NCBI GenBank assembly: GCA_964434195.1
Contig: CAYSUI010000005.1
Location: 10,671-74,670 of the forward strand
Direction of reading: 5' to 3'
DNA length: 64,000 nucleotides
DNA from: an uncultured Candidatus Saccharibacteria bacterium
GTDB taxonomy: Bacteria; Patescibacteriota; Doudnabacteria; UBA920
Positions 20,970 through 63,209 of this stretch are shown piece after piece (positions within the stretch are counted from its first letter, which is position 1; each line of letters starts with the position of its first letter). The notes under the pieces were generated by a model. The model saw only the letters and a program-made list of their open reading frames with translations. It was not told the DNA's origin and ran no database searches. A program made the translations under genes and the position numbers.

Positions 20970-21605
20970 CCCCAGCACGATTGCAGATTCTAAGTGCAGT
21001 TTCGTCGATTTTCGATGGCCTAGTCGAAGGCGTCCCCAGCCCCAGCTCGATTGCAGATTCTGTGGAGATTTTCAAAACTGTCAAAATTTAGCACGATTGC
21101 AGATTTTGTATGCAGTTTCGTCGATTTTCGATAGCCTAGTCGGAGGCGTCCTCAGTCTCAGCCCGATTGCAGATTCTGGAGGTTATTTTTGTGCAAATGC
21201 GAGTACCGAACGGAGGCGACCTACAGTCCCAGCACGATTGCAGATTTTGAAGAGATTTTCCAAATTATCGTAATTTAGCTCGATTGTATATTTTGAGTGG
21301 ATTTTTGTGACTCTTGATAGCACCTGGCTTTGCCAGTGCTAGCTCAAGTCGATTTACGAGCACCGGAACGGAGGCGTCCCCAGTCTCAGCTCGATTGCAG
21401 ATTTTGAGGAGATTTTCCAAATTATCGTAATTTAGCTCGATTGTATATTTTGAGTGGATTTTTGTGACTCTTGATAGCACCTGGCTTTGCCAGTGCTAGC
21501 TCAAGTCGATTTACGAGCACTGGAACGGAGGCGTCCGTGCTGGGACGGTGAAGTGAGGAGCGGAGCAAATCGGCAAAAAGCCGCCAAAATAGACGATCCC
21601 CTGTT
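20970..21605. repeat. Non-coding degenerate tandem repeat array (8 units starting CGATTGCAGATT/CGATTGTATATT; last two roughly 157-bp units near-identical)
   Basis: Repeat units identified by eye; the ORFs on the track here (21265-21480, 21422-21649) share identical C-termini because they lie in repeat copies. Confidence 0.75.
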
Positions 21606-22239: not shown

Positions 22240-22330
22240 TTCACATGTGTGGATAACCTAGGGATAACACCCGAATAACTACTCTCAACTGTGTATAAGT
22301 GGATAAAATTGTGGATTACTAATGGATTAT
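22240..22330. promoter_or_regulatory. Cluster of DnaA-box-like 9-mers (TGTGGATAA perfect; AGTGGATAA, TGTGGATTA one mismatch) next to an A/T-rich tract at 22140-22240
   Basis: Matches to TTATCCACA consensus read on the reverse strand. Confidence 0.5.
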
Positions 22331-22347
22331 CCTAGGAAACCAATGTA

Positions 22348-24584: not shown

Positions 24585-25667
24585 TTAATCGTCAATAGAA
24601 CCTTCTTCTTCCTCTTCTTTAGGAGGTGCTGCTATTACTGCTTCCCCACTCTTTAACTTTACCCTAATTGCATGGTCTATTTTCTTAGCGATATCTTTAT
24701 TATCTTTTATGAACGCTTTAGAATTTTCTCTACCTACACCTAGCTTAACAGATTCAAATGCATATGTATTACCACTCTTAGAAATTACCCCAAGAATAAC
24801 ACCCGTATCAAGTAAATCTCCTGGTACTGAAATACCTTCATTATACATAATATCGAACTCAGCTATTTTAAAAGGAGGAGCTACTTTGTTTTTGACTATT
24901 TTTACTTTAGTTCTATTTCCTACAATTTTCTCACCGCTCTTAATTTGAGCTACTCTTCTCACCTCCACCCTTACAGAAGCATAAAATTTTAAAGCATTAC
25001 CACCAGTTGTTGTCTCAGGGTTACCAAACATAACCCCAATCTTCATGCGTATTTGGTTAATAAATATAACCGTAGTCTGCGTTTTAGATATAATACCCGT
25101 CAGTTTTCTCAAAGCCTGGCTCATCAGCCTAGCCTGTAAACCCATATGAGAATCACCCATTTCACCTTCTATTTCCGCCCTAGGTGTAAGCGCTGCAACA
25201 GAATCAATTACTATAAGATCTAAACTATTACTTCTAACTAAAGTTTCCGCTATATCCAAAGCTTGTTCACCGTTATCTGGTTGCGAAATCAGTAAATCAT
25301 CTAAATTAACCCCAATTCTTTTTGCATATTCAGGATCCAAGGCATGCTCAGCATCTATAAACGCTGCCAGGCCACCAGCTTTCTGTGCTTCAGCAATCAT
25401 ATGCAGAGTCAAAGTGGTTTTTCCTGAGCTTTCTGGACCATAAATTTCAATAACCCTGCCCTTTGGAATTCCACCAACCCCCAATGCAATATCCAAACTA
25501 ATACTACCTGTCGGTATAGTTGCAATACTCAAAGTAGTATTTTCTGAAAGCTTCATAATACTACCGTCACCAAACTTATCCTTAATTTGATCGAGCGCAG
25601 TACTTAGTGCCTTCCATTTTCCAGGTTCTATATTAGAAATCCCCTTTTTCACTAGTTGTTTAGCCAT
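24585..25667 (-). CDS. recA: Recombinase RecA
   Basis: [13 protein letters not shown] Walker A; L1/L2 loop context; classical length. Confidence 0.92.
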
Positions 25668-33704: not shown

Positions 33705-33841
33705 GAGACCGAGGATGTTTTAGCTCGAACGAAATCCGGACCCGATTTAGAATCTGGCTTTGCCAGTTATAAATCTCAGGCTATTGGCCACATGCCAGTG
33801 CCGATAAGAAGCCGGACCTAGTGAGAGTTGAAACATCCTCG
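33705..33841. mobile_element. MITE-like 137-bp element with 16-bp perfect terminal inverted repeats (GAGACCGAGGATGTTT / AAACATCCTCGGTCTC) carrying an internal CTGGCTTTGCCAG hairpin
   Basis: TIRs and internal hairpin read directly; same internal hairpin motif recurs at 5 other sites. Confidence 0.5.
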
Positions 33842-33864
33842 GTCTCGAACACGGACAAAACATC

Positions 33865-39749: not shown

Positions 39750-40286
39750 ATGCAAAGAAAATTATTAAGTCTTTTTAAATCGTTCTTAATAAAAATAAAT
39801 ATCTTGATAAATACTCTACAAATTGTCTTAACTATTTTTTGCCTTTTATCACTCTGCTTCTCCACATACTCTCTTATATGGGTTATAAAACTCAAAAAAC
39901 TTAGAAGAAAATTATTAGAAAAAAGCCCACCTTTAACTTTAGAAGAGGCATTAAATAGCCTAGAAACCCACTTAACAGTTCTTGAAAGGAACCAACTTTC
40001 TACTCAAGAACAAATAGATATTGTAGAAAAAATTCTCCAAGGAGCTATTCAAAAAGTAGGAATTGTAAAATTCAATTCGCTTTCAAACGACGGTGGCAAT
40101 TTCTCTTTCTCTGCAGCACTATTAAATCATCATAACTCTGGAATAATCTTATCGAGTTTATATGGACGAGAATTCAATAGAATTTATATAAAATCCATAC
40201 AAAATGGACATAGTGAAATTCCTTTAACCGAGGAGGAGGAAAAAGCTCTAGCAGAAACACAAGTTAGGAAAAAAATAATTAATTAA
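39750..40286 (+). CDS. Hypothetical membrane-anchored protein
   Basis: N-terminal TM; ORF only. Confidence 0.3.
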   Translation: MQRKLLSLFKSFLIKINILINTLQIVLTIFCLLSLCFSTYSLIWVIKLKKLRRKLLEKSPPLTLEEALNSLETHLTVLERNQLSTQEQIDIVEKILQGAIQKVGIVKFNSLSNDGGNFSFSAALLNHHNSGIILSSLYGREFNRIYIKSIQNGHSEIPLTEEEEKALAETQVRKKIIN

Positions 40287-40307
40287 CCAATACTTTAAAT
40301 AAATTTT

Positions 40308-40697
40308 ATGTCAAAAAACCCAGATTCAGAAAACTTAAGCGCAGAAACCGTAGTAGGACCTTCGGTGAAAATACAAGGTGATTTAAATAGCGAGGGAAAT
40401 ATAAAAATAGAAGGTCAAGTAACTGGTAAAGTAAATACAACTCAAAGCGTTTATGTGGGTCAAGCAGCTAAGATTCTCGCTGATGTATTTGCGGGAAATG
40501 CCATTATCGCTGGCGATATCCAAGGAAATATCAAAGTATCTGGTAATTTAATTCTCCAAGGGACAGCTAAAATTAAAGGCGATATTACTTGTTCCATACT
40601 AAGAGTCGAAGATGGTGCACTATTCACAGGCAAATGTAGCATGAACGGTGGATCTCCCCGAGTAGCTAGTTCTTCAATGGAAGCCGAATTAGAATAG
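40308..40697 (+). CDS. Bactofilin (DUF583) cytoskeletal protein
   Basis: Beta-helical repeat pattern VKIQGDLNSEGNIKIEGQVTGKV... characteristic of bactofilins. Confidence 0.75.
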   Translation: MSKNPDSENLSAETVVGPSVKIQGDLNSEGNIKIEGQVTGKVNTTQSVYVGQAAKILADVFAGNAIIAGDIQGNIKVSGNLILQGTAKIKGDITCSILRVEDGALFTGKCSMNGGSPRVASSSMEAELE

Positions 40698-40835
40698 AAA
40701 ATTAAACTTCCTCAAACCACGGATCGCAAATTTGGGGTCAGATTATTGCGCAAATAAAACTTAAATCCAGCTCAGCTGGTTTTAAAATCAGTAGTTCACT
40801 TAGATGATTTATGCTTAAAGGCAAAATCCAAACTT

Positions 40836-41705
40836 GTGATCCCGTTTCTGAGCACAAAAATTTTGTATTATTACATATTAGACCCAACAAATATACCGTA
40901 CGATAAATTCGAACGGTATCAAATCGAATTACAAGGTCTTGTAGCTGAGTTTAATGTTTCTGGTGAAACCTCGAGAGTTACCCCACTAAGAAGTATTTCC
41001 GACCTTGTCGACACCGCCAGTAGTCGTGGAGTAAAAACCATAATCGCCTGCGGTACCGACGATACCTTTAACCTAATGCTCGCGAGTTTAAAAGGACGAG
41101 ATTTCGTACTGGGATTTGTTCCATTCGACGAAAATTCCTACCTTTCAAAAATACTTGGTCTAGGAAGTGTTTCTAATGCAATTAGAACAATAGCGGGTAG
41201 AAGAATTGAAAAAATAGATTTAGCCTACGTCGGATCTTCATATTTCATAAGTTCCTTAGAAATGGGCACCCCAACATCTGAGATAAAAAAAGCGGGTTTC
41301 TTCAGCAGTTTTAAAATCTTTGGAAATACCGGTGAAGAAATAACTCTTAGAATAGACGACAATTACACTTTAAACACAGAAATTTTAAGTGCGCTTGTTG
41401 TTAACACGCGTTCTACTTCTTCCAAAAACGCCAAACTCGCAAACCCAACCGACGGTTATCTGGATTTACTCATGATTCCCAAACTAAAAACTACCGATGC
41501 ACTGAAAAATAAAAGCATTATAGGTGAAGGTTTGTTGGAGCAAATACCGAATTCCTCAACAATAAGGTGTAAACAAGTAGAATGCCTCGAACCAAAAGGA
41601 ATGCCTATCAGGCTAGCAGGCAAAGTAATCGCTAAATTCCCTTGTTTAATCCAAATATCATCTGAAAGCTTAAGAGTTATTGTAGGCAAAAACCGCACAT
41701 TTTAA
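40836..41705 (+). CDS. Hypothetical protein, weakly DAGK_cat/lipid-kinase-like
   Basis: TIIACGTDDTFNLMLASL loosely resembles the GGDGT region of DAGK_cat kinases. Confidence 0.25.
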   Translation: MIPFLSTKILYYYILDPTNIPYDKFERYQIELQGLVAEFNVSGETSRVTPLRSISDLVDTASSRGVKTIIACGTDDTFNLMLASLKGRDFVLGFVPFDENSYLSKILGLGSVSNAIRTIAGRRIEKIDLAYVGSSYFISSLEMGTPTSEIKKAGFFSSFKIFGNTGEEITLRIDDNYTLNTEILSALVVNTRSTSSKNAKLANPTDGYLDLLMIPKLKTTDALKNKSIIGEGLLEQIPNSSTIRCKQVECLEPKGMPIRLAGKVIAKFPCLIQISSESLRVIVGKNRTF

Positions 41706-41869
41706 CCCCGTTGCTCGGGGTTTTTAGTTGCCAAAACACGCGCTTTTAGGTATATTTAGAAAGTTATAAATAAATTCCCTCGAATTTACTCATCCTTCTT
41801 ATATTGAATTATGCGATTCAAAAAATAGCTTTTTCTCGATACGGGTCTCCTATTTCGAGAAAAAATAAA

Positions 41870-41914
41870 AGGAAAGAGTGAGTCATGAGAGGGAAAACCA
41901 TGTTTTCCCTCTTA
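41870..41914 (+). repeat. 45-nt repeat: purine-rich SD (GGAAAGAGTGAGT) + ATG + perfect hairpin AGAGGGAAAA-ccatg-TTTTCCCTCT; copy A at the infB start
   Basis: Near-identical copy at 53317-53361. Confidence 0.7.
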
Positions 41915-43849
41915 TATTACTTTATGAATCTATCCTCCCTTTCAGAACAACTAAATTTGTCCATTCAGGAACTTCGCGATAAAGCTAACGCAAAGGGTTT
42001 TCGCATATCCCCAAGAGCAAACAAGATAGATAACCACCTCGCAAAGGAAATAATAGAAGCCCTACAAGTCAAAAAAACAGTTGAGAATAACACCCCAACA
42101 ACCCCAACCAGTATAAACCTCCCTCCATTCATTAAGGTCAGGGAATTTGCAGATTTGTTGAAAAAACCCGTGACCGAGGTCATTAAAGTGCTCATTCAGA
42201 ATGGAGTCATGGCTACTATCAACGAAGAGGTAGACTATGAAACAGCCGCTATCGTTGCTCAAGATCTAGGTTTCGAAGTCTCTACTCAGGTAAATAATGA
42301 CGAAGAAACTTATGGCTTAGGTTTCCTTCAACAAGTTATAACTTCTGAAACAGAAGGGAATTTACAACCCAGATCACCTATAGTAGCCGTAATGGGACAC
42401 GTAGATCACGGTAAAACCACCTTATTAGACGCAATCCGAAGAACCAAAGTAGCGGAAGGTGAATCAGGCGGTATTACTCAACATATTGGAGCTTATCAAG
42501 TTAAGCATAACGGTAAAAATGTTACTTTCTTAGACACACCTGGACACGAAGCTTTCTCAGAAATGAGAGCCAGAGGCGCTAATGTAACAGATATCATTAT
42601 TCTGGTTGTAGCGGCCGATGATGGCGTAAGACCACAAACAGTTGAGGTTATTAACAGAGCAAAATTCACCAATACCCCCATTATTGTTGCCATAAACAAG
42701 ATCGACAAAGAAAATGCTAACCCAATGAGGGTCAAACAGGAATTAGCAGAATATGGCATTTTAACCGAAGAATGGGGAGGCAAAACTATTGCGGTAGAAA
42801 TTTCAGCTAAACAAAACAAAGGAATAGATGATTTACTTGAAATGGTCCTTCTAACAGCAGAAATAGAAAACCTGAAGGCTAACCCAGAAGGTAAAACAGT
42901 GGGTACTGTAATTGAATCAGATACCGAACTCGGCTTAGGTGCTGTAGCAACCCTAATAGTCCAAAATGGGACCCTAAAAATTGGTGATATCTGTGTTGCT
43001 GGTAAAGCATACGGAAAAATAAAGAGTATGGAGAGCGATTCAGGTAAAAAGCTCAAAATAGCACCACCTAGCTCCCCGGTTAGAGTTTCGGGTCTTTCCA
43101 CCACCGCAGAAGCAGGAGATGTCCTACAAACAGTCGAAACTATCGAAAAAGCTAAACAAATTGCAGAAAGCGTAGCAAAAAGACAAAGAAGCCATACCTT
43201 AAAAGGTAAACACAGTCTCCAAGGAGATTTACAAAATAAGAGTCTCAATTTAATCATAAAAACCGACGTAGCTGGTAGCCTTGAAGCTATTAAACAATCT
43301 CTAGCCAAGTTAAAGAATGACGAAGTAAAAATTGAAATTCTAAATAGCGGTGTTGGAGAAGTAAATGAATCAGATGTTTTACTAGCAGAACCTTCTAAAG
43401 CCACCATTATAGCTTTTAGGGCCAAAACAAACCCCAAGGCAATAAATCTCGCTAAACAGAAAAAGGTTATAATCGATTCGTACGACGTTATTTACGAATT
43501 AATCGAGAACATTACTTCAGCAGTCGTCCAAATGTTCACCCCTGAATATGAAAAAGTAAGTTTTGGTAAAGGTGAGATATTAGCTATCTTTAGAACAGAA
43601 AAATCTGAAATGATAATTGGTGGAAAAGTAACAGAAGGCGAACTCAGAAAGAATAAGCGCATTTCCATAGAAAGAGCCGGAGTTCAAATTGGAACCGCCG
43701 AGATCCTAGAACTTCAACAAAGTAAGATCGCAACAAAAGAAGTTACTAAAGGAAATGAGTTTGGTATGAAACTAAAAACGAATATCAAACTTCAAACAGG
43801 AGATATTCTAGAAAGCTTCGAAGAAAACCTAAAACAAAAGAGTCTTTAA
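41885..43849 (+). CDS. infB: Translation initiation factor IF-2 (N-terminal 9 codons come from the repeat; real start could be further downstream)
   Basis: G-domain AVMGHVDHGKTTLLD, DTPGH, NKID; C-terminal beta-barrel domains. Confidence 0.9.
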   Translation: MRGKTMFSLLYYFMNLSSLSEQLNLSIQELRDKANAKGFRISPRANKIDNHLAKEIIEALQVKKTVENNTPTTPTSINLPPFIKVREFADLLKKPVTEVIKVLIQNGVMATINEEVDYETAAIVAQDLGFEVSTQVNNDEETYGLGFLQQVITSETEGNLQPRSPIVAVMGHVDHGKTTLLDAIRRTKVAEGESGGITQHIGAYQVKHNGKNVTFLDTPGHEAFSEMRARGANVTDIIILVVAADDGVRPQTVEVINRAKFTNTPIIVAINKIDKENANPMRVKQELAEYGILTEEWGGKTIAVEISAKQNKGIDDLLEMVLLTAEIENLKANPEGKTVGTVIESDTELGLGAVATLIVQNGTLKIGDICVAGKAYGKIKSMESDSGKKLKIAPPSSPVRVSGLSTTAEAGDVLQTVETIEKAKQIAESVAKRQRSHTLKGKHSLQGDLQNKSLNLIIKTDVAGSLEAIKQSLAKLKNDEVKIEILNSGVGEVNESDVLLAEPSKATIIAFRAKTNPKAINLAKQKKVIIDSYDVIYELIENITSAVVQMFTPEYEKVSFGKGEILAIFRTEKSEMIIGGKVTEGELRKNKRISIERAGVQIGTAEILELQQSKIATKEVTKGNEFGMKLKTNIKLQTGDILESFEENLKQKSL

Positions 43850-43938
43850 AACCCCTTTCCGGGGGTTTTTTGTTCTGTTTGCTACAATAAAACTACACTT
43901 GATAATAAAATCTAAACCTCGTATACTATCCATTCTCT

Positions 43939-44292
43939 ATGAAAAAAGACCTAAAAAAACCAAGTTTTCGCATAAATAAAGTTGAAGCCTTAGCCCAACA
44001 AATCATTGGCGTTGCCATACGTCCTTTTCTTGAAAATCTACCAGGATTTACCACTGTCAGCAAAGTCCAAGTGAGCAAAGATATGAAATGGGCCAAGGTT
44101 TATATATCTATCGTAGGTGGCGATGATAAAAAAATCTTTGACACTTTAAATAAAAATATTTACGACATCCAAGGCGAATTAAACCACCAATTGGCTGTAA
44201 AAATAGTACCTAGAATAAGTTTTCACCTAGACGAATCCCCTAGATATGCCCAGCACATAGAAGAAATAATAAAAGAGATTCACAAAGATTAA
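43939..44292 (+). CDS. rbfA: Ribosome-binding factor A
   Basis: KH-like RbfA motif RINKVEALAQQIIGVAIR...WAKVYISI. Confidence 0.8.
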   Translation: MKKDLKKPSFRINKVEALAQQIIGVAIRPFLENLPGFTTVSKVQVSKDMKWAKVYISIVGGDDKKIFDTLNKNIYDIQGELNHQLAVKIVPRISFHLDESPRYAQHIEEIIKEIHKD

Positions 44293-46026: not shown

Positions 46027-46167
46027 TTCACGAGCGTAGCAATGTGAATGCGCCAACCAAAAGTAGCTCGCTACTTTTGAAAGGGACAACAAGGTAAACG
46101 AAGTGTAGTCTTTATGAAGCGAAAGCGTAATAAAGACGTAACGCAGTGAGCCTTGGTTGGCCCGTGG
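46027..46167. ncRNA. E2: tRNA-associated structured repeat, copy 2, between tRNA-Phe and tRNA-Gly
   Basis: Aligns with E1/E4; hairpin 2 AAAAGTAGC-tcg-GCTACTTTT and hairpin 3 GTCTTTAT...ATAAAGAC show compensatory changes. Confidence 0.55.
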
Positions 46168-46244: not shown

Positions 46245-46251
46245 TTCTATA

Positions 46252-46282
46252 TTCACGAGCGCAGCAATGTGAACCATTTATC
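46252..46282. repeat. E3: truncated roughly 25-nt remnant of the E repeat between tRNA-Val and tRNA-Phe
   Basis: TTCACGAGCGCAGCAATGTGAACC matches the conserved E 5' end only. Confidence 0.5.
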
Positions 46283-46358: not shown

Positions 46359-46385
46359 CTATATATATTATAACTGAGACTATGA

Positions 46386-46522
46386 TTCACGAGCGCAGCA
46401 ATGTGAATTCGCTACAAAATGTAACTCGTTACATTTTAAAGGGGCAACTTGGGGAACGTAGTGAAAGGTTTATGGAGCGATAGCGTAATAAACCTGCAAC
46501 GAAGAGAGCCAAGATTGACCCG
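46386..46522. ncRNA. E4: tRNA-associated structured repeat, copy 4, between tRNA-Leu(GAG) and tRNA-Val
   Basis: Aligns with E1 over the full length. Confidence 0.55.
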
Positions 46523-47566: not shown

Positions 47567-47577
47567 TAGAAATAATA

Positions 47578-47607
47578 AACCTCCCCCATAATAGGGGGAG
47601 GTTTTTA
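47578..47607 (+). terminator. Terminator hairpin AACCTCCCCC-ataata-GGGGGAGGTT + T-run
   Basis: 10-bp perfect stem after the stop codon. Confidence 0.6.
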
Positions 47608-47785
47608 AATGAAAAACCTCGGGGCAAGCCCACGAGGTATCGAATCTCATGTGTCATTCCCGAGAAGTCGGGAATCCATGCGCTTGAATCTCATGGATCC
47701 CCGCATGCGCGAGGATGACAACACAGCGGGGCAAGCCCCGGGGTATTAACCCTAACAGAGATAATAAAAAACCGACATAACAATT

Positions 47786-48109
47786 TCATAATCGTATGTC
47801 GGCAATAATGTCTGCAAGAGACGTAATTAACACAATTCGCCTCTTCATTCTTCTGGCTTGTCTTATCTCCTCCATCTGCAACTGAGGATCATAAACTAGA
47901 AGAAAGATACGCTTCGTAGCGCTTGTGAAGAGTTGCTCCAATCCCTGAAAACTAGTTAGAACTACATGACTGGGACCTTGTTCTACTACCTCCTGAGCAG
48001 ACTGGGTGAATGATGTTTCAAAACCCATAGCACGAATAGTATCTAGAAGCGGATTTGCCTCGTCCACTCGCGCCACACTTCCGTTGGTGAAACAGAGTGT
48101 ACTTGTCAC
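47786..48109 (-). CDS. Hypothetical protein in a locally GC-richer segment
   Basis: ORF; DNA here is visibly richer in G+C than the flanking genes. Confidence 0.3.
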   Translation of the reverse strand: MTSTLCFTNGSVARVDEANPLLDTIRAMGFETSFTQSAQEVVEQGPSHVVLTSFQGLEQLFTSATKRIFLLVYDPQLQMEEIRQARRMKRRIVLITSLADIIADIRL

Positions 48110-48394
48110 TTAATCTCCTCCCGAAAAATTTATTGTGAAAACCAAATAAAATAGATAACTAACGAATATTAATAAAATAATAACCACATGTAAAGTGGAC
48201 AACTAATTTATAATTTAAGAGTCCATTCCCATGGAAATGGGAATCCACACCCAGATTGATTTTTACGCCCTAATAAAGTAAAATTGAGTAACGAATTCCC
48301 CACTGACGTTGCACTTCTGCATTTAATAGCAGCAAAGCTGCGAGACGGGGGAAGCTTCGATCCGGGTTTCCCGGATGAAGGGGTGCTCTTGAAG

Positions 48395-48446
48395 GAATCA
48401 GGCTTCGCCTGTCCCTGCTCAAGTCGGCTACGCAAGCCCCTACCTA
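48395..48446. repeat. X1: REP-like hairpin module (CAGGCTTCGCCTG ... GCTCAAGTCGGCTACGCAAGCCCC) immediately 5' of tRNA-Cys; paralog of the insert at 56714-56792
   Basis: Aligns with CGAATCTGGCTCTGCCAGTTCGAGAGGCGACGCAAGCCCCC at the gyrA 3' scar. Confidence 0.45.
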
Positions 48447-48521
48447 GGTGCGTTGGCGAAGTGGTAACGCTGCGGTCTGCAAAACCGCCATGCGTGGGTT
48501 CGAATCCCACACGCACCTCCA
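48447..48521 (+). tRNA. tRNA-Cys (anticodon GCA), CCA encoded
   Basis: Acceptor GGTGCGT/ACGCACC, anticodon loop CTGCAAA, T-arm GTGGGTTCGAATCCCAC. Confidence 0.8.
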
Positions 48522-48537
48522 TGTGGGAGGTTATTCA

Positions 48538-48705
48538 GGATTCCCAAATTACTTGCTTACGTATGAGTTTATTTGAAAAACCCCGAAGAGGGGTTTTTCA
48601 AAAAACAAAGCAAGAAGCAGTTTGGGAAGAGGAGAACTTTATGGAAACTGCAGTTACTAGTTCTGCAACGAACTAGTAACGGAGGTTGGAATAAAGTATG
48701 ACGAG
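48538..48705 (+). ncRNA. Y1: roughly 165-nt structured element (long GAAGA-loop hairpin; SD GGGAAGAGGAGAA + 11-codon mini-ORF 48641-48676) between tRNA-Cys and its truncated copy
   Basis: Second copy at 56844-57009 with compensatory stem changes (CCCC/GGGG vs GCGC/GCGC; ACTAGTTC/GAACTAGT vs ATTAGTTT/AAACTAAT). Confidence 0.55.
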
Positions 48706-48771
48706 GCGAAGTGGTAACGCTGCGGTCTGCAAAACCGCCATTCGCGGGCTCGAATCCCGCTCGCGCCTCCA
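48706..48771 (+). pseudogene. 5'-truncated tRNA-Cys copy (D-arm to CCA; acceptor 5' strand absent) with compensatory T-stem/acceptor changes relative to the intact gene
   Basis: GCGAAGTGGTAACGCTGCGGTCTGCAAAACCGCCAT identical; T-stem GCGGG/CCCGC vs GTGGG/CCCAC; 3' acceptor TCGCGCC has no 5' partner upstream. Confidence 0.7.
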
Positions 48772-48859
48772 AAAAACAACAATCCTATTTGTTGTTTTTT
48801 AATTGGTATACGATAATAAATCTCTTGTGATTACGTTTACCTATTGATATAATTGTAAT

Positions 48860-49345
48860 ATGCCCAACAAAAGGAGATGGACAAATAAAGAATTGATTAA
48901 GGCTGTGAAAACATCTTATAGTCTCAGGCAAGTATTAATACTACTCGGACTACGGCCAACAGGTGGTAATTACGATCAACTAGCAAAATACATAAAAGAA
49001 CTAAATCTAAATATCACACATTTTAAGGGTAAGGGCTGGAATAAGGGTTTAACATATTTTCATCCTCGTCAGGAATTAAAAGATCTTCTTGTCAAAGGTG
49101 GAACTTCCCAAAGTTACAAATTAAAACTACGACTATTCCGAGAAAATCTTAAACCTCAACAATGCGAAGAGTGTGGGTGGGCAAAAAAATCACCTGATGG
49201 ACGCCTACCACTAGAACTTGAACACATAAATGGAGACAGGCACGATAATAGAATAGAAAACTTAAAAATTCTGTGTCCAAACTGCCATAGTTTAACTATT
49301 ACATATAGGGCTAGAAATAAAATCAAAAAATCTGCTACAATATGA
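48860..49345 (+). CDS. HNH-family endonuclease (stand-alone, 161 aa)
   Basis: CEECGW...LELEHINGDRHDNRIENLKILCPNCHS: canonical HNH with flanking Cys pairs. Confidence 0.8.
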   Translation: MPNKRRWTNKELIKAVKTSYSLRQVLILLGLRPTGGNYDQLAKYIKELNLNITHFKGKGWNKGLTYFHPRQELKDLLVKGGTSQSYKLKLRLFRENLKPQQCEECGWAKKSPDGRLPLELEHINGDRHDNRIENLKILCPNCHSLTITYRARNKIKKSATI

Positions 49346-49350
49346 ACCAT

Positions 49351-49436
49351 GCCCGAGTGGCGGAACTGGTATACGCACAACACTTAAAATGTTGCGTCCT
49401 ATGGAATTGAGGGTTCGAGTCCCTCCTCGGGCACCA
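49351..49436 (+). tRNA. tRNA-Leu (anticodon UAA), type II, CCA encoded; starts 6 nt after the HNH stop
   Basis: Acceptor GCCCGAG, anticodon stem CAACA/TGTTG, loop CTTAAAA, long variable arm. Confidence 0.8.
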
Positions 49437-49596
49437 CAAAAAACACGTTCATATATGTGAACGTGTTTTTTATTAATATTAACTAAAAATAAAGGGAATC
49501 AAACCTTCGCGCTAGCGAAATCTTTAGAAAGCTTAAGACATGCTCCGCTGGCTTAAGCGTTCGGCGCAAGCCTGCGAAGTCGCCGATATATAGACA

Positions 49597-49658
49597 TCCC
49601 TCCTCGGGCACCACAAAAAAACACGTTCTATATATGAACGTGTTTTTAAGTAATATAT
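49597..49658 (+). repeat. Direct repeat of the last 18 nt of tRNA-Leu(UAA) plus its terminator hairpin, 160 nt downstream of the original (att-like duplication flanking a 113-nt structured insert at 49481-49593)
   Basis: TCCCTCCTCGGGCACCAC + AAACACGTTC-tatatat-GAACGTGTTT duplicates 49419-49468. Confidence 0.7.
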
Positions 49659-49725
49659 AGACAGAAAAATTAAGAAATGCTATAAATACAAATTAATTCC
49701 TACATCCAACATTCGGAGGCTAAAA

Positions 49726-50184
49726 GTGGACATAAGAAAATCAGCTAAGTCATTGTTAGATGTGTTAATCTTTCTCTGGCCAATCACCATCATATTAATT
49801 GGGGTATTATTATCCCTAACTTTCGTCATATTGTACGACTACTTACCAACTTCTCCTCTACCAAGTTACAAAATCGAAGGTATAGGACAAATCTACATGC
49901 ACGAAAAAGGTAGATACACCATCGAAGTAAACAAACCTGGTACAAAAGAATTCACGCTGGAATCTCTTTCGCAAGACCGATACGATTTTGGAGCTAATAT
50001 TGTTGTAAGAGACGTGCCCGAAGAAAACCAAAATTACATCATCATTAAACAGGTTAAAAATGGTTTAACCGGTGGAACGCAAAACGCGCAACTCGAATTC
50101 CATATTAAGCCTTCTTCCCGAATACAAGGTGGAAGTTGGGACCATGGTAAGTCAGGCAAAGGGACAACCCAGCCAATCGATTAG
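49726..50184 (+). CDS. Hypothetical protein with N-terminal TM helix
   Basis: ORF with terminator hairpin at 50186-50215. Confidence 0.35.
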   Translation: MDIRKSAKSLLDVLIFLWPITIILIGVLLSLTFVILYDYLPTSPLPSYKIEGIGQIYMHEKGRYTIEVNKPGTKEFTLESLSQDRYDFGANIVVRDVPEENQNYIIIKQVKNGLTGGTQNAQLEFHIKPSSRIQGGSWDHGKSGKGTTQPID

Positions 50185-50249
50185 CATACAACCCAAACAA
50201 GGTTGTTTTTTTATTTGGCAACTCGAGGCTATACCATTAAACTAACCAT

Positions 50250-51284
50250 ATGCAAAACAAGATAAAAATCGCCATTCTATACGGTGGCAAATCAGCGGAA
50301 CACGAAATCTCCATAAGGTCAGCCGAAAGCATAGAAAAAGCTCTCGATAAAGAAAAATACGAAATAACAAAAATATTCATTGCTCCAAGTGGAAAGTGGC
50401 AACTGGAAAATAAATCTAAAAACATCCTTCTAGCCCCAGAATCTAACGGCGAACTAACCGTTAATGGAGAAGTTTCGGCACAAAAAATAGATGTTGTTTT
50501 TCCAGTCCTCCACGGACCCTTCGGTGAAGATGGCACTGTTCAGGGACTCCTTAAACTTGCCGGAATACCTTTTGTAGGGCCAAGCGTACTAGGTTCTAGC
50601 ATAGGTATGGACAAAGACGTTACCAAAAGACTACTAAAGGAAGCTGGTATTCCCATCCCAAAATTCATAACAACCACACAGTCTAAATTACCTAGCTACG
50701 TATTAGCCAAAGAAACCCTAGGTAATATCATATTCGTAAAACCAGCAAATTTAGGTTCTTCTGTTGGTGTACATAAGGTAACCAATGAACAAGAATACCA
50801 ATCGGCAACTATAAATGCTTTCTCTTACGACACTAAAATATTACTAGAAGAATTCATAGAAGGTAGAGAAATAGAATGCTCCGTTTTAGGTAACGAAGAC
50901 CCCATAAGTTCTCTTCCCGGTGAAATAATCCCCACTCACGACTTCTATTCATACGACGCAAAATATACCGATCAAAACGGAGCTAAATACGAAATTCCAG
51001 CTAAGCTAGACGAAATTACAACGAAAAAAATTCAAGATTTAAGTATAAAATCTTTTAAAACACTTTGTTGCGAAGGAATGTCTCGAGTAGATTTTTTCCT
51101 TAAGCCAAATGGTGAAATATTAGTAAACGAAGTTAACACCATCCCGGGTTTCACTTCTATCAGCATGTACCCGAAAATGTGGGAAGCTAGCGGTCTCCCA
51201 TATAGCAAACTATTAGATAAACTAATAGATCTAGCAATAAAAAGACATCAGACAGAACAAAAACTCCTAACAAATAGACCATAA
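50250..51284 (+). CDS. ddl: D-alanine--D-alanine ligase
   Basis: N-terminal IAILYGGKSAEHEISIRSA, ATP-grasp domain, C-terminal EVNTIPGFTSISMYPK. Confidence 0.9.
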   Translation: MQNKIKIAILYGGKSAEHEISIRSAESIEKALDKEKYEITKIFIAPSGKWQLENKSKNILLAPESNGELTVNGEVSAQKIDVVFPVLHGPFGEDGTVQGLLKLAGIPFVGPSVLGSSIGMDKDVTKRLLKEAGIPIPKFITTTQSKLPSYVLAKETLGNIIFVKPANLGSSVGVHKVTNEQEYQSATINAFSYDTKILLEEFIEGREIECSVLGNEDPISSLPGEIIPTHDFYSYDAKYTDQNGAKYEIPAKLDEITTKKIQDLSIKSFKTLCCEGMSRVDFFLKPNGEILVNEVNTIPGFTSISMYPKMWEASGLPYSKLLDKLIDLAIKRHQTEQKLLTNRP

Positions 51285-51286
51285 TT

Positions 51287-51320
51287 AAAACCCCCGAAAC
51301 TATCGGGGGTTTTAAATACT
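51287..51320. terminator. Bidirectional terminator hairpin AAAACCCCCGA-aacta-TCGGGGGTTTT between convergent ddl and rpsA
   Basis: 11-bp stem flanked by A/T runs on both sides. Confidence 0.6.
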
Positions 51321-51323
51321 TTA

Positions 51324-52484
51324 CTACTTTGTCTTCTCTTCTGTGTTTTCCTTTGTAGGAGCATCACTAGACTTAAGTGTAAGCCCAAGTCTGTGCTCGC
51401 CTGGTTCAATAGAAATTATCTTGAACACTTTCTCATCTCCAATAGCAACAACATCTTCTGCCTGCTTCACTGGGTCATTAGATAATTCCATTAAATGTGC
51501 CAAGCCCTGTATATCTTTATCCAGCTCTACAAATACTCCAAATGGCATTATCTTTGTAATTTTTCCACTTACTTCCTGACCTACCTGATATTTTTTAACA
51601 GCCTCTAACCAAGGGTCTGTCTTAAGTTGTTTAATAGACAAAGAAACTCTACCTTTGTCTATAGCTATTATTTTACATTCAACTTCTTGCCCAACTCTTA
51701 TAATATCTTTCGGATTCTCTATTCTCTGCCAAGCAAGCTCAGAAATATGCACCAAACCTTCAAGTTCACCAAATTTTACGAAAACACCGAAATCTACTAC
51801 ACCTGTTACTGTACCTTTTACTACCTGGCCTATTTTCAACTTACCCAACTTATCTTCCATTTCTTTTTCATATACCGCACGCTCAGAAACGATGAGCTTT
51901 TCTTCTTCAGAATCAGCAGTAATTATCTGTACAGTGAAAATTTGTCCTACATAAGAATTTAAAGCGGAAAGAATTTTGTTCTTATCGCCTTCTTCTACTC
52001 TAGGGTAGTGTTCTAAAGAAAGCTGAGACACTGGCAAGAATCCAGTTACTCCGTTTATTTCTACCATAAGTCCACCCTTGTTAGCAGCCAATATCTTAGT
52101 GTGAACAACTTCTTTACTATCAAGCTTGTCTTTAAGTGTTTGCCATACTCGTTCTTGCCCAGCAACACGAAGACTAAGCTCTACGTTACCATCTTTATTT
52201 TCTGCCTCTACAACAGAGGCAGTAATGATATCACCTACTTTTAAAGAATTTAGGGTAGCTTCATCATCATAAAGCTCTCTACCTCTTACAACACCCAGAC
52301 CCAAACCCTCTATATCAATATAAACTTCATTTTTACCTACGGAAAGTAGAGTACCTTCTACCATATCTCCAGGTTTAATAACCCGGATCTCAACACCACT
52401 TGCTAACAAATCGCTCATTGTCTGAGCTTTTTGAGCATTTGAATTAATTTGTTCGTCTGACATATATATAAAAAACACCTGCAA
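51324..52484 (-). CDS. rpsA: 30S ribosomal protein S1, short 4-domain form (likely start at internal Met near 52463)
   Basis: Four S1 OB-fold repeats (GDMVEGTLLSV..., GDIITASVV..., GQIFTVQII..., GQVVKGTVTGV..., GQEVSGKITKI...). Confidence 0.85.
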   Translation of the reverse strand: MQVFFIYMSDEQINSNAQKAQTMSDLLASGVEIRVIKPGDMVEGTLLSVGKNEVYIDIEGLGLGVVRGRELYDDEATLNSLKVGDIITASVVEAENKDGNVELSLRVAGQERVWQTLKDKLDSKEVVHTKILAANKGGLMVEINGVTGFLPVSQLSLEHYPRVEEGDKNKILSALNSYVGQIFTVQIITADSEEEKLIVSERAVYEKEMEDKLGKLKIGQVVKGTVTGVVDFGVFVKFGELEGLVHISELAWQRIENPKDIIRVGQEVECKIIAIDKGRVSLSIKQLKTDPWLEAVKKYQVGQEVSGKITKIMPFGVFVELDKDIQGLAHLMELSNDPVKQAEDVVAIGDEKVFKIISIEPGEHRLGLTLKSSDAPTKENTEEKTK

Positions 52485-52661
52485 GCAGATGTTTAACCAT
52501 AAGAATACAATTCCCTATAAAAACAGAGTATTAAATTCTAATAATTAAACAGTGCCTTGCCCAAAACGGGCAACTTATTCGGGATTAATAATTAAATTTA
52601 GATAAAAGCACTGAACCAAATAAGCCTCCCCATTATACGTAAAAGATTTACCCTTGTCATC

Positions 52662-52690
52662 TTGACAAAAATACTAATTATTAGCATAAT
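52662..52690 (+). promoter_or_regulatory. Sigma-70-like promoter TTGACA-17 nt-CATAAT upstream of the 52777 ORF
   Basis: Consensus -35 and near-consensus -10 with 17-nt spacer. Confidence 0.4.
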
Positions 52691-52776
52691 TTCATTTATT
52701 TCTAACACTCCGAATGAAAAAGTTTTAACCCAAATATACCTTTATTAGGAGTCAAAAAAACTAACCTGGAGAAGTA

Positions 52777-53148
52777 ATGGTTAAATTCGTTATAAAAGTA
52801 AAAATAGAAGAAGATGACCCAAACATACAAACAAAATCATGGGAAGGGTTTATTGAACTACCAGTACCGAATGGATGCAATCTTCAAGACCCCCAAACAT
52901 TTGGAAGAATGGCCTCAAAAGCGCTATGTATGTTGGGTGGCTGGAAGTCAGTCGATACTGAACGCCCTCAAAACAGGATCATAGCTATCGCTCAACTTAT
53001 GCAACTTTTAGGTAAACTTGCCAATTCATTTAGGAATGCATTCGAAACCCGCTCAAATGAATCTCTCCAAGGCATAGACACTATCATAATCGGATTCCCA
53101 AAAAATGGAATTGGTATCGCTCAAACCCATGAAATCAGAATGAAATGA
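52777..53148 (+). CDS. Hypothetical protein
   Basis: ORF with SD ggagaagtaATG. Confidence 0.35.
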   Translation: MVKFVIKVKIEEDDPNIQTKSWEGFIELPVPNGCNLQDPQTFGRMASKALCMLGGWKSVDTERPQNRIIAIAQLMQLLGKLANSFRNAFETRSNESLQGIDTIIIGFPKNGIGIAQTHEIRMK

Positions 53149-53316
53149 ATTCAAACATACCGTAAAAGTGACAGTATTTTTTATTGCCTAAACACCCCAA
53201 AAAAAGTACAATACATAGGTACTTTTAATAATTTATTAGCGGTTTTTTCTTCTCTTTTTGCCTTCCAAAGATGTAGCATTTCTAGGATCCGGCTTTGCCG
53301 GGCATAGAAATAACAG

Positions 53317-53361
53317 CGGAAAGGGTGAGTAATGAGAGGGAAAACCATGTTTTCCCTCTCA
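53317..53361 (+). repeat. Copy B of the SD + ATG + hairpin repeat (GGAAAGGGTGAGTAATGAGAGGGAAAACCATGTTTTCCCTCT) just upstream of the 53363 ORF
   Basis: Near-identical to 41870-41914. Confidence 0.7.
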
Positions 53362-53362
53362 T

Positions 53363-53989
53363 ATGCATTTACAATTTTTCGGACTTTCAAGTTTCAAATT
53401 CACAACAAAAGAAGCAGTGGTAGTTACCGACCCCTTCGATAAATCGTCTGGTCTTACTCCACCAAGAGGTGGAGCAGATATAGTAATTCTCGCCGAAAAA
53501 GAAAACCCACTCTATTCAGAAATAAAAGGTATTACCGGTGAACCTTTCCATGCTTTCGACCCAGGAGAATACGACGTAAAAGGAGTAACAATAACCGGCA
53601 TCCCTTTAAAACAAGATAAGGGCTATGTAACGGCATTCCTAATAGAAAGTGAAGATATCAGAATTCTTAATTTAACTCACATTAAAGAATTCTCTATGAA
53701 ACAAGACGAACTAGAAGACTTGGGAGATATAGACATTCTCATCTTGCCCGTTGGTGGCCACTCTGTAATGGACGCTAGTACAGCAGCCAAAGTAGTAAAC
53801 CAAGTAGAACCCGCTCTTATTATTCCCAGCCACTACAGTATGGACGGACTAAAAACAGAAACCGATAAATTAGAAAAATTTGTTAAAGAAATGGGTGGTA
53901 AATCAGAAGAGACAGATAAAATAATCGTTAAAAAGAAAGACCTAAACCCAGAAATTTCCAAAGTTATGGTTCTCACGCCTATGAGATAA
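53363..53989 (+). CDS. MBL-fold-like hydrolase homolog lacking the HxHxDH metal motif
   Basis: UPF0173-like length and C-terminal ILILPVGGH...IIPSHY pattern; N-terminal His cluster absent. Confidence 0.3.
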   Translation: MHLQFFGLSSFKFTTKEAVVVTDPFDKSSGLTPPRGGADIVILAEKENPLYSEIKGITGEPFHAFDPGEYDVKGVTITGIPLKQDKGYVTAFLIESEDIRILNLTHIKEFSMKQDELEDLGDIDILILPVGGHSVMDASTAAKVVNQVEPALIIPSHYSMDGLKTETDKLEKFVKEMGGKSEETDKIIVKKKDLNPEISKVMVLTPMR

Positions 53990-56713: not shown

Positions 56714-56843
56714 TAGCGGCAAGGCCGCGAGAAGGGAGGCTCGAATCTGGCTCTGCCAGTTCGAGAGGCGACGCAAGCCCCCTTAGTAGCAAGTCATGAG
56801 ATTAGACGATGGCGATAGCGTAGCAAGCGTTACTGTCATTTAG
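56714..56843. repeat. Insertion scar after the gyrA stop: 79-nt REP-like hairpin module X2 (56714-56792) followed by a diverged 51-nt duplicate of the gyrA 3' end (56793-56843)
   Basis: gtcatgagattagacgatggcgatagcgtagcaagcgttactgtcatttag vs gyrA terminal gtaatgagattagacgatggagactcagtggctagcgtaacggtcatttaa (about 80% identity). Confidence 0.7.
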
Positions 56844-57009
56844 GGATCCTAAATTACTTGCTTACATATTAGTTTTAGAAAAAAGCGCGAAGAGCGCTTT
56901 TTTCTAAAACATGGAAAGAAGCAATTTGGGAAGAGGAGAACTTTATGGAGACTGCAGTAATTAGTTTTATATCAAACTAATTAGGGAAGTCGAAATAAAG
57001 TTGGACGAG
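56844..57009 (+). ncRNA. Y2: second copy of the 165-nt structured element with SD + 11-codon mini-ORF (56945-56980, METAVISFISN)
   Basis: Aligns with Y1 with compensatory stem changes. Confidence 0.55.
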
Positions 57010-57066
57010 CAAGTGTGACTGTTATCTAAAACCCTAACCATTATTAAATATAAAAATAAGCGACTC

Positions 57067-59902: not shown

Positions 59903-59988
59903 TCCCAAGACCCAAAACGGTCTTTTTTATTTCCCATACTTAATTTCCCTACATAATAAACAAAAGACACCACTAAAGGTGCCTAAAA

Positions 59989-60126
59989 TTCACGAGCGAA
60001 GCAATGTGAGTGCTAAAATGGGGTCCCCGACAGCTCGCTTTTGGGGAAGAGGGACACGAGCCAAAACATCGCGCAAGGTTTTCTGCATCGAAAACCTGGA
60101 GCAAAGTTTGGGCTCGATGGCCCGAG
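59989..60126. ncRNA. E5: most divergent copy of the tRNA-associated structured repeat, abutting tRNA-Ile(UAU)
   Basis: Shares 5' TTCACGAGCGAAGCAATGTGAG and the 3' junction ...GGCCCGAG-TGGTGGGCGC; middle region diverged. Confidence 0.45.
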
Positions 60127-62828: not shown

Positions 62829-63209
62829 TTGCGCATGATTGACAAGAATGAAAAACCGAAAGACCTACAACGCAGAACGAAAATATTCGCAATTCGGATC
62901 ATAAAATTAGTAAAATTTTTAGAAAAAGACTCAGTAGCAAAAATAATTGGTAAACAAATCTTACGTTCTGGCACTTCAGTTGCCACCAACTACAGAGCAT
63001 CATGTAGAGCAAAATCTGCTAGAGATTTTATTTCCAAAATCTCTATAGTTATGGAAGAATCTGACGAAACGCTATTTTGGCTGGAATTACTTGAAGAATC
63101 CAATTTAGTAAATGCAAAAACAATTGCGGATCTCAAAGACGAGGCAAATCAAATCACTGCAATCATGACAGCCTCTAAAACTTCTGCAATAAAAAACCAA
63201 AAAGGTTAG
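62829..63209 (+). CDS. Four-helix-bundle protein (23S rRNA intervening-sequence protein family)
   Basis: GKQILRSGTSVATNYRASCRAKSARDFISKISIVMEESDETLFWLELL, the family's conserved core. Confidence 0.7.
   Translation: MRMIDKNEKPKDLQRRTKIFAIRIIKLVKFLEKDSVAKIIGKQILRSGTSVATNYRASCRAKSARDFISKISIVMEESDETLFWLELLEESNLVNAKTIADLKDEANQITAIMTASKTSAIKNQKG

Follow-up and report, generated by a model that had tools for sequence, protein, structure and literature searches.

Why should a tRNA-Cys gene, a tRNA-Leu(UAA) gene and gyrA of one bacterium each be followed by a partial copy of its own 3′ end, with a short non-coding element in between? The question is raised by a 64-kb stretch of DNA (the window; 37% G+C) from a metagenome-assembled genome (MAG) of the Patescibacteria, or Candidate Phyla Radiation (CPR), which lies within a 77,020-nt NCBI contig. 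An original prediction, made from the letters of this stretch, had interpreted the region around the two tRNA genes as a mosaic of scars left by tRNA-targeted integration. In the answer that we favor, and to which we give about an even chance of being right, a resident backbone has been colonized by lineage-specific, non-autonomous hairpin elements that resemble miniature inverted-repeat transposable elements (MITEs) or repetitive extragenic palindromic (REP) sequences and are flanked by long target repeats. The D-Ala-D-Ala ligase of the window finds its best match at only 60% identity among the GTDB species representative genomes, and our comparisons with close relatives rest on short Logan contigs.

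A scan of all 71 genes and tRNAs of the window for downstream repeats of their own 3′ ends set three apart, namely tRNA-Cys (z = 52), tRNA-Leu(UAA) (z = 30) and gyrA (z = 19). Two further hits were attributed to a hairpin repeated in a tRNA cluster and were set aside. The three outliers, together with the features confirmed below, indicate that the observation is real and non-random; most of it was borne out, and its interpretation in part. At tRNA-Cys, the following features were identified.

48447-48521, plus strand: intact tRNA-Cys(GCA) with an encoded CCA (ARAGORN; Rfam, 67 bits, full length)
48530-48704, plus strand: Y1, a 175-nt structured element (second copy Y2; fold)
48705-48771, plus strand: tRNA-Cys copy, 5′-truncated, positions 9-76 (Rfam model positions 9-63, 38 bits)
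48771-48800, plus strand: hairpin and T-run (AAAAAACAACAA/TTGTTGTTTTTT) after the truncated tRNA-Cys (inverted repeat, direct reading)

The intact gene and the truncated copy were thus recovered as predicted, the partial Rfam match spanning 48705-48760. They are identical at 61 of 67 nt (91%), starting with a 5′ block of 37 identical nt, and all six differences fall in the 3′ third. Of the six, two compensate each other within a single T-stem pair (GTGGG/CCCAC to GCGGG/CCCGC), two affect the 3′ acceptor strand and one the variable region, and the last alters T54 of the T-loop. The claim that the copy is self-consistent therefore holds for the T-stem pair, while the 3′ acceptor strand has no 5′ partner by which it could be judged. 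The 5′ acceptor strand of the host tRNA, GGTGCGT, pairs perfectly with the proximal 3′ strand and not with the distal one. By inspection, the truncated copy is far closer to its own tRNA-Cys (91%) than to the tRNA-Cys of other lineages, so that any donor would have been a fairly close relative.

The most informative repeats stand behind gyrA, where the order is end 1, X2, end 2 (51 nt), Y2 and end 3 (21 nt).

56714-56782, plus strand: X2, short form of a structured element X, right after the gyrA stop codon
56793-56843, plus strand: gyrA end 2, the last 16 codons and stop (11 nt differ, all synonymous)
56835-57008, plus strand: Y2, second copy of Y (78-79% identical to Y1, with matching left and right ends)
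57009-57029, plus strand: gyrA end 3, encoding ASVTVI and stop (match p = 0.001 at the nucleotide level)

Of 51 nt, 11 distinguish end 1 from end 2, a serine being written TCA in one and AGC in the other; the encoded 16-residue peptide is identical, and the longest identical core is 17 nt. Ends 2 and 3 are told apart by 5 of 21 nt, every one a third codon position, and never share an identical core longer than 6 nt. Random substitution would leave the peptide of end 1 unchanged with a probability of 5e-5 for six substitutions and did so in 0 of 100,000 trials for 11; the corresponding value for five changes in the last 21 nt is 4e-4. Neutral decay of a fresh duplication was rejected, as 11 of 11 and 5 of 5 differences keep the gyrA peptide. 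Such synonymous-only differences (P < 1e-4) imply that each copy was shaped as a functional gyrA end and comes from a working allele. This result generalizes the earlier proposal that the truncated tRNA-Cys derives from a different allele, which the compensated T-stem pair supports and the gyrA ends support more decisively. The template and variable repeats of a diversity-generating retroelement were also considered and rejected, given that the differences in gyrA and tRNA-Cys are, by inspection, not confined to adenines. A search with the gyrA C-terminus returned matches of at most 73% identity, and the gyrA end is plain at those loci.

The elements between these repeats belong to families. 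The spacer between the tRNA-Cys copies measures 183 nt and the element itself 175 nt, so the separator had been correctly recognized and its length, given as 165 nt, had not. Two hairpins occur in Y1, the first terminator-like (48573-48605) and the second long (48636-48697); Y folds with z = -4.9 to -8.4. Among 55 predicted pairs, comparison of Y1 with Y2 revealed nine compensated and none broken, and the ends of Y pair with each other over 3 bp only. The targets of the two copies, tRNA-Cys and gyrA, are unrelated, and their termini are alike. The possibility that the right flank of Y2 is a decayed tRNA-Cys was discarded (p = 0.73), the flank matching the gyrA end instead (p = 0.001); a gyrA remnant at the left flank of Y1 (8/10 nt) is not significant alone. 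The X family has a longer member ahead of tRNA-Cys.

48327-48441, plus strand: X1, predicted structured leader from promoter to tRNA-Cys (comparison with X2; relative L104)

Five of 16 pairs are compensated between X1 and X2. What X1 has and X2 lacks is M, a hairpin module of 44 nt nested at 48386-48429; three further copies of M occur at ~21310, ~21467 and ~35213. X1 and X2 have the left junction CATTTAATAGC in common, which resembles the last codons of gyrA (CATTTAA/TAGC, the slash marking the junction); the shared left junction of Y1 and Y2 resembles them as well (GTYATTYAG/G), both resemblances having weak statistics. These shared junctions could be either a target motif or carried-over flank. 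W (described below), X, Y and M are discrete elements, and the window has more than one copy of X, of Y and of M, as well as seven copies of the shared hairpin motif TCYGGSTYTSCCRG (versus 0.19 expected). Discreteness and a structure kept by compensatory change indicate that X and Y are not random deletion remnants. The original prediction had left a choice between remnants and mini-elements mobilized in trans; the former do not suit the conserved structure of X and Y, and the latter come closest to the data.

The third repeat lies at tRNA-Leu(UAA).

49351-49436, plus strand: tRNA-Leu(UAA) (ARAGORN, Rfam)
49420-49479, plus strand: repeat A, the last 18 nt of tRNA-Leu and its terminator hairpin (self-comparison, terminator scan)
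49480-49596, plus strand: Z, a 117-nt insert between A and A′
49597-49656, plus strand: repeat A′, a second tRNA-Leu 3′ end with terminator

The predicted duplication of the last 18 nt and the terminator hairpin was confirmed. A and A′ are 92% identical (gapped BLAST) with an identical core of 24 nt, and the repeat begins exactly at the T-loop/T-stem boundary. Z had been described as a structured insert of 113 nt at 49481-49593. An insert is present; it is 117 nt long, is not significantly structured (z = -0.5) and occurs in a single copy in the window. Z was also found in the contigs of one relative (L088-L090), at 92% identity over 100 nt and with both flanking repeats; A′ in L088 reads ACCCTCCCTGGGCACCA and differs at 3 of 18 nt from that relative's own tRNA end. 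No empty site of Z was found, the site being filled in this only relative read. An arrangement conserved in relatives was what the original prediction had named as speaking against itself, and for tRNA-Leu and Z the same arrangement is thus seen in the one readable relative.

In the comparison of the window with L088 over 49408-53400, identity is 98-100% at 50550-52000 and 72-90% at 49408-50550. We read this mosaic as pointing to a frequent import, by recombination, of alleles diverged by 10-28%, a range equal to that of the repeat divergences. RecA is encoded in the window at 24585-25667.

Gain or loss of an element between strains was observed for W.

47608-47762, plus strand: W, a structured, GC-rich insertion of 155 nt with the terminators of two convergent genes on either side

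An imperfect direct repeat of 11 nt brackets W (AATGAAAAACC, 47608-47618; AATAAAAAACC, 47763-47773). W is missing from the relative L103 (Logan SRR12404957; 95% identity over 1208 aligned nt), in which a clean empty site reads ...GGGGGAGATTTTTA/AAATAAAAACCGACATAAC. W is a true insertion/deletion polymorphism. Its left flank is locally more diverged than the remaining L103 alignment. The terminal repeats of W (CGGGGCAAGCCC..GGTAT) are direct, not inverted. Short-read Logan unitigs of the window strain (L004-L007) break off at the left edge of W (47607 or 47636), which is consistent with a branch in the assembly graph, W being present and absent in the sampled populations. The stretch 47608-47760 had been called structured and tRNA-like; the RNA fold supports the former (z = -4.2), and W as a tRNA-like element was rejected, with neither an ARAGORN nor an Rfam tRNA signal. 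Empty sites in relatives, proposed earlier as a check, were accordingly obtained for W and not for tRNA-Leu and Z.

What has been colonized is a resident backbone, which consists of a small gene, a promoter, the X leader with tRNA-Cys, and a Patescibacteria-wide module of tRNA-Cys, an HNH endonuclease gene and tRNA-Leu(UAA). Its upstream part contains the following features.

47786-48109, minus strand: 107-aa gene with a predicted CheY/flavodoxin-like fold (homologs, AlphaFold)
48220-48250, plus strand: small hairpin module (CATTCCCATGGAAATGGGAATCCA) akin to an internal hairpin of W (75% over 24 nt)
48256-48284, plus strand: promoter-like TTGATT-17-TAAAAT, predicted driver of X1 and tRNA-Cys (consensus scan)

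The 107-aa ORF is present as predicted and was not confirmed as part of a scar. Its homologs are 96% (P0123, in L103) and 45% (P0124, in L104) identical and share its synteny, by which it is a resident conserved gene and not element cargo. AlphaFold models the protein with a pLDDT of 82; the best PDB matches are receiver domains, and they are weak (E = 2.5e-3, TM 0.55-0.72). No Pfam or PHROG match was found for it. L103 and the distant relative L104 both retain the promoter-like site. In L104, where the neighbor protein is the 45% identical homolog, the promoter is followed by the start of X (TAGCAGCAAGGCTGCGAGAGGGGGAAGCT) before the contig ends. Judging from this placement, the tRNA-Cys transcription unit has X1 as its conserved leader, and X1 is not an insertion scar. 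In aligned sequences, the hairpin CATTCCCATGGAAATGGGAATCCA shows two stem differences in L103 that look compensatory, and it is missing at the L104 counterpart.

The downstream part of the backbone is the HNH gene and its neighbors.

48825-48853, plus strand: promoter-like TTGTGA-17-TATAAT with upstream TG (consensus scan, 10/12 matches)
48860-49345, plus strand: free-standing HNH endonuclease, 161 aa (Pfam, PHROG 10822)

The ORF scores 21.4 bits with Pfam HNH (at the cut-off), 23.9 bits with HNH_3 (cut-off 24.8) and E = 2e-47 with PHROG 10822, and contains the catalytic motif with flanking Cys pairs (CEECGW...ELEHINGDRHDNRIENLKILCPNCH). The promoter-like site, the best of the region, lies 7 nt ahead of its ATG. 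The gene does adjoin tRNA-Leu(UAA), as had been stated, at a distance of 5 nt from the stop codon and not 6. More than 1600 homologs were found at about 60-68% identity. We read the context in five other, distant Patescibacteria lineages from various sources (L091-093, L094, L097-098, L099-101 and L102), the loci being found via the HNH protein itself, so that HNH-less genomes fall outside the sample. The HNH gene adjoins tRNA-Leu(UAA) in all five (six of six with the window) and lies between both tRNAs in four. Those four lineages have the order (infB)-rbfA-tRNA-Cys-HNH-tRNA-Leu(UAA), with an HNH stop codon that touches or overlaps tRNA-Leu(UAA); in the remaining one, L102, HNH is placed 3′ of tRNA-Leu(UAA). 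The window has the matching DUF4446 ... infB-rbfA block at 39750-44292. The truncated tRNA-Cys is situated 88 nt upstream of the HNH start, and the spacing between tRNA-Cys and HNH elsewhere is 52-317 nt. Between lineages, HNH is 60-66% identical versus 20-34% for RbfA. The HNH gene, which had been taken for a stand-alone scar, is a conserved resident of the module.

Free-standing homing endonucleases are known within phage tRNA clusters, namely SegB of T4 and the HNH enzymes F-TflI/II/IV of T5 (PMC2330249). The HNH ORF resembles them in being wedged between tRNA genes and in having full-length phage homologs (37-43% identity), one of which, in Synechococcus phage S-CRM01, lies directly 3′ of a tRNA-Leu. 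A further likeness is the stop codon that touches or overlaps the next tRNA, so that tRNA processing would cut the mRNA (PMC2330249). The window gene differs from the phage enzymes in being chromosomal, in its presence at tRNA-Leu(UAA) in every sampled cellular lineage, and in being much more conserved than its neighbor RbfA. The sporadic presence and absence expected of a homing gene is not what the six HNH-selected loci show. From its chromosomal location, constant position and conservation, HNH looks like a fixed or domesticated tRNA-cluster endonuclease, and it may be a domesticated, functionally important Patescibacteria gene instead of a selfish homing gene.

Two observations were made at the other HNH loci. 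In L102, a group I intron (Rfam, 66 bits) occupies 862-1100, just upstream of tRNA-Gly, tRNA-Leu(UAA) and HNH. In L091 (3690-4090, read by eye), the terminator after tRNA-Lys and the ~60 nt that follow it are repeated ~270 nt downstream with a GC-rich insert between; terminator-flanking repeats around small inserts may thus extend beyond the lineage of the window.

Several other features were encountered in the window, and they are listed here in their own right.

8749-8886, 46027-46167 and 46385-46522, minus strand: T family, structured elements of ~140 nt that begin right after the CCA of tRNA-Leu(TAG), tRNA-Phe and tRNA-Leu(GAG); a variant lies at 59985-60126
46251-46273: terminal T hairpin alone, a short form at tRNA-Val that looks like an unoccupied site
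20974-21540: tandem-repeat mosaic in a 1.5-kb non-coding region, with units of 116-157 nt that are 77-97% identical; it includes M twice, and a related piece lies at 4818-4935 (~4.8 kb)
33705-33846: 140-nt element adjoining the RNase HII gene, closed by a 35-nt inverted repeat (80% complementary) and holding the hairpin CTGGCTTTGCCAG; no Rfam match at the gathering threshold
41871-41924 and 53318-53371: 54-nt repeat (89% identical) with the perfect palindrome ATGAGAGGGAAAACCATGTTTTCCCTCTYAT
22240-22340: AT-rich cluster of DnaA-box-like sites (TGTGGATAA and variants) upstream of a DEDDh exonuclease-domain gene
62829-63209: ORF with a match to PF05635, the family of 23S rRNA intervening-sequence proteins; its neighbors are a gene of tetrapyrrole-methylase fold and yebC

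Each T element terminates in the hairpin TTCACATTGCTGCGCTCGTGAA, and 8 of 44 predicted pairs are compensated. One copy of the 54-nt repeat overlaps the infB start codon and the other that of a gene with a metallo-beta-lactamase fold, and the repeat may be a shared regulatory or translational element.

Which process would leave such a pattern? In the reading that we favor, W, the small hairpin, M (within X1), Y and Z, all protein-less, GC-rich and ~30-180 nt long, behave like mobile repeats that have invaded the backbone. An enzyme encoded elsewhere in the genome would insert these elements by the 3′ ends or terminators of transcription units, and each insertion would leave a long direct target repeat of variable length (11-67 nt); alternatively, the element and a copy of the target end could enter jointly by Campbell-type recombination. 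The upstream repeat would stay the working gene end and the downstream repeat would be stranded. The two would differ by function-preserving substitutions as products of different working alleles, either through later replacement of the working end by homologous recombination with a diverged strain or through arrival of the element with its donor's gene end. Successive events would stack old ends downstream, giving gyrA end 1, X2, end 2, Y2 and end 3. The original picture of a mobile-element mosaic is retained here as regards the polymorphism of W; X1, the HNH gene and the 107-aa gene drop out of it as residents.

The systems closest to this description are MITEs, REP sequences with bacterial interspersed mosaic elements (BIMEs) and REP doublets (REPINs), the GC-rich palindromic clusters of AT-rich yeast mitochondrial DNA, and Rickettsia palindromic elements. 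Like them, the families of the window consist of GC-rich hairpins, small and encoding no protein, set in an AT-rich genome; they are multi-copy, modular and nested, intergenic and near gene 3′ ends or terminators, with a polymorphic member (W) and a strand-biased motif. The MITE-like traits are related copies at unrelated loci (Y two, X two, M four, the hairpin motif seven) and the presence or absence of W with precise boundaries; the inverted termini that mark MITEs, and their short target duplications of constant length, were not seen. The REP/BIME/REPIN-like trait is that of short, imperfect, GC-rich extragenic palindromes in many modular copies. Unlike these systems, the 64-kb window has neither a REP-associated tyrosine transposase (RAYT) nor another transposase partner, and its families are confined to one Patescibacteria lineage. 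W, X, Y, Z and M found no match in distant Patescibacteria loci, phage records or viral contigs; a pattern for the Y core gave no match in viral contigs and two chance matches in metagenomes of the Joint Genome Institute (JGI), and patterns for Z, X, the T hairpin and M gave none in viral contigs.

Insertion sequences (IS) of the IS1634/IS1549 type, which have an autonomous DDE transposase and inverted repeats, produce unusually long target duplications of variable length. The long and variable direct repeats (tens of nt) in an AT-rich, small-genome bacterium are reminiscent of them, unlike the lack here of both such a transposase and inverted repeats. As fresh IS1634/IS1549 duplications would be identical, later allele replacement would still be required.

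Several points weigh against an invasion by mobile hairpin elements. The mobilizing enzyme was not identified in the 64 kb of one contig that were read, clear terminal inverted repeats were not seen, and the flanking repeats (11, 21, 51 and 60-67 nt) by far exceed ordinary target-site duplications in length and in variability. Y, Z and X2 yielded no empty site; W and Z each occur just once in the window, and Z is filled in the only relative. The allele-replacement step is one that we infer and did not observe. Both the position of X1 and the promoter ahead of it are conserved, and X may therefore be a functional RNA and not a parasite. Finally, all copies of TCYGGSTYTSCCRG lie on the plus strand, a bias over seven sites only, two of them in tandem repeats. 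A replication origin at ~22.2 kb was considered as the cause of this bias and rejected, no GC-skew switch being present within the window.

Among the alternatives, the one that survives best, and that we nevertheless consider unlikely, retains the idea of integrase scars. It holds that the repeats are the attL and attR sites of elements with a tyrosine or serine integrase at the 3′ parts of tRNA-Cys, tRNA-Leu and gyrA, that each element brought a substitute gene end from its previous host, and that the element bodies were later deleted or that mini-derivatives were mobilized in trans. Integrative elements target the 3′ ends of tRNA or protein genes and restore a working copy, the two copies being slightly different, and the T-loop/T-stem boundary is a classical sublocation of integrase crossover. 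The tRNA-Leu repeat starts at this boundary, identical cores of 37 nt (tRNA-Cys), 24 nt (tRNA-Leu) and 17 nt (gyrA copies 1 and 2) are present, and function-preserving divergence suits a carried surrogate end. In common with integrative elements and their integrase-less, cis-mobilizable derivatives (CIMEs), the window shows a complete and a 3′-partial target copy in direct orientation, a pattern that serves as the standard mark of tRNA-gene integration (PMC9897764). However, only non-coding DNA lies between the repeats (117-183 nt for the tRNAs, 79-183 nt overall), and Pfam revealed no integrase, transposase or reverse transcriptase domain in any window ORF of 100 aa or longer, in line with the predicted absence of an integrase. 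Neither a fixed attP nor two random deletions can explain one insert family, Y, with alike termini at two unrelated targets. Decaying remnants would not preserve their fold through compensatory change as the inserts X and Y do, and the repeats are three deep behind gyrA. The tRNA-Cys repeat begins at position 9, ahead of the D-arm, which is atypical; since GGTGCGT pairs with the proximal strand only, a crossover within the tRNA would imply a mismatched original tRNA; gyrA copies 2 and 3 have no identical core above 6 nt; and matches of the region to phage records and viral contigs are limited to tRNA-Leu and HNH. The classic attL/attR signature is therefore a poor fit, with Y at tRNA-Cys and gyrA and repeats of varying length.

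A second alternative, improbable in our estimate, is that Y and X, and perhaps Z, are protein-less mini-elements "addressed" by a carried piece of the target gene. A structured element with one copy of a gene 3′ end would excise as a small circle and, guided by homology, enter that gene again in other strains with the help of RecA or of a structure-specific recombinase. Each entry would supply or preserve a working end and shift the previous one downstream.

To an explanation by functional non-coding RNAs (ncRNAs) we assign a similarly low probability. Here the elements would be leaders, trailers or terminator cassettes that punctuate transcription, the repeats would stem from local duplication or slippage, and nothing would be mobile. 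The position of X1 between a conserved promoter and tRNA-Cys, also in the distant relative, speaks for this view, as do the terminator-like hairpin of Y (two consensus scans revealed no other terminator from gyrA or the intact tRNA-Cys to Y), the compensatory conservation of structure in X, Y and the tRNA-trailing T elements, and the retention of Z at 92% in a relative whose flanking terminators diverge more. Against it, W is dispensable, being missing in a close strain, M is nested in X1 and placed at unrelated intergenic sites, the motif keeps to the plus strand among minus-strand genes, and the synonymous-only pattern rejects simple tandem duplication with neutral decay. A known RNA family for W, X, Y or Z was sought in Rfam and rejected, the matches being weak and at chance level only.

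That the HNH enzyme itself generated the pattern, by cleaving or nicking the flanking tRNA-Cys and tRNA-Leu, the breaks then being repaired with diverged donors as templates (by intron-less homing with co-conversion, or aberrantly, yielding allele-mixed partial duplications and templated insertions), is very improbable: 3′-end repeats do occur in 2 of the 12 tRNAs of the window, exactly the pair that flanks HNH (1 in 66 if random), homing endonuclease genes of tRNA clusters are documented in T4 and T5 (PMC2330249), and the S-CRM01 homolog adjoins a tRNA-Leu, but the five other lineages have HNH at tRNA-Leu(UAA) and partial tRNA copies at none of their HNH loci, a like repeat with Y stands behind gyrA ~7 kb from the HNH gene, and HNH appears fixed, as a long-resident gene would be, and not sporadic.

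For the biology of the Patescibacteria, whose mobile DNA is poorly described, the locus presents a tiny AT-rich genome with several families of small structured repeats that come and go between close strains. It is routine to take partial tRNA copies for marks of genomic islands; here they surround non-coding elements of 80-180 nt and have a counterpart at a protein gene, so that an island-like signature of this kind can mislead island finders and tRNA annotation. The placement of HNH, kept across lineages in which RbfA is only 20-34% identical, is unexpected for a selfish gene and deserves study. If addressed entry were true, it would leave nested, once-working ends behind gyrA and tRNA-Cys. 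The stacked gyrA ends amount to a small fossil record of successive working alleles and offer a handle on recombination between diverged strains.

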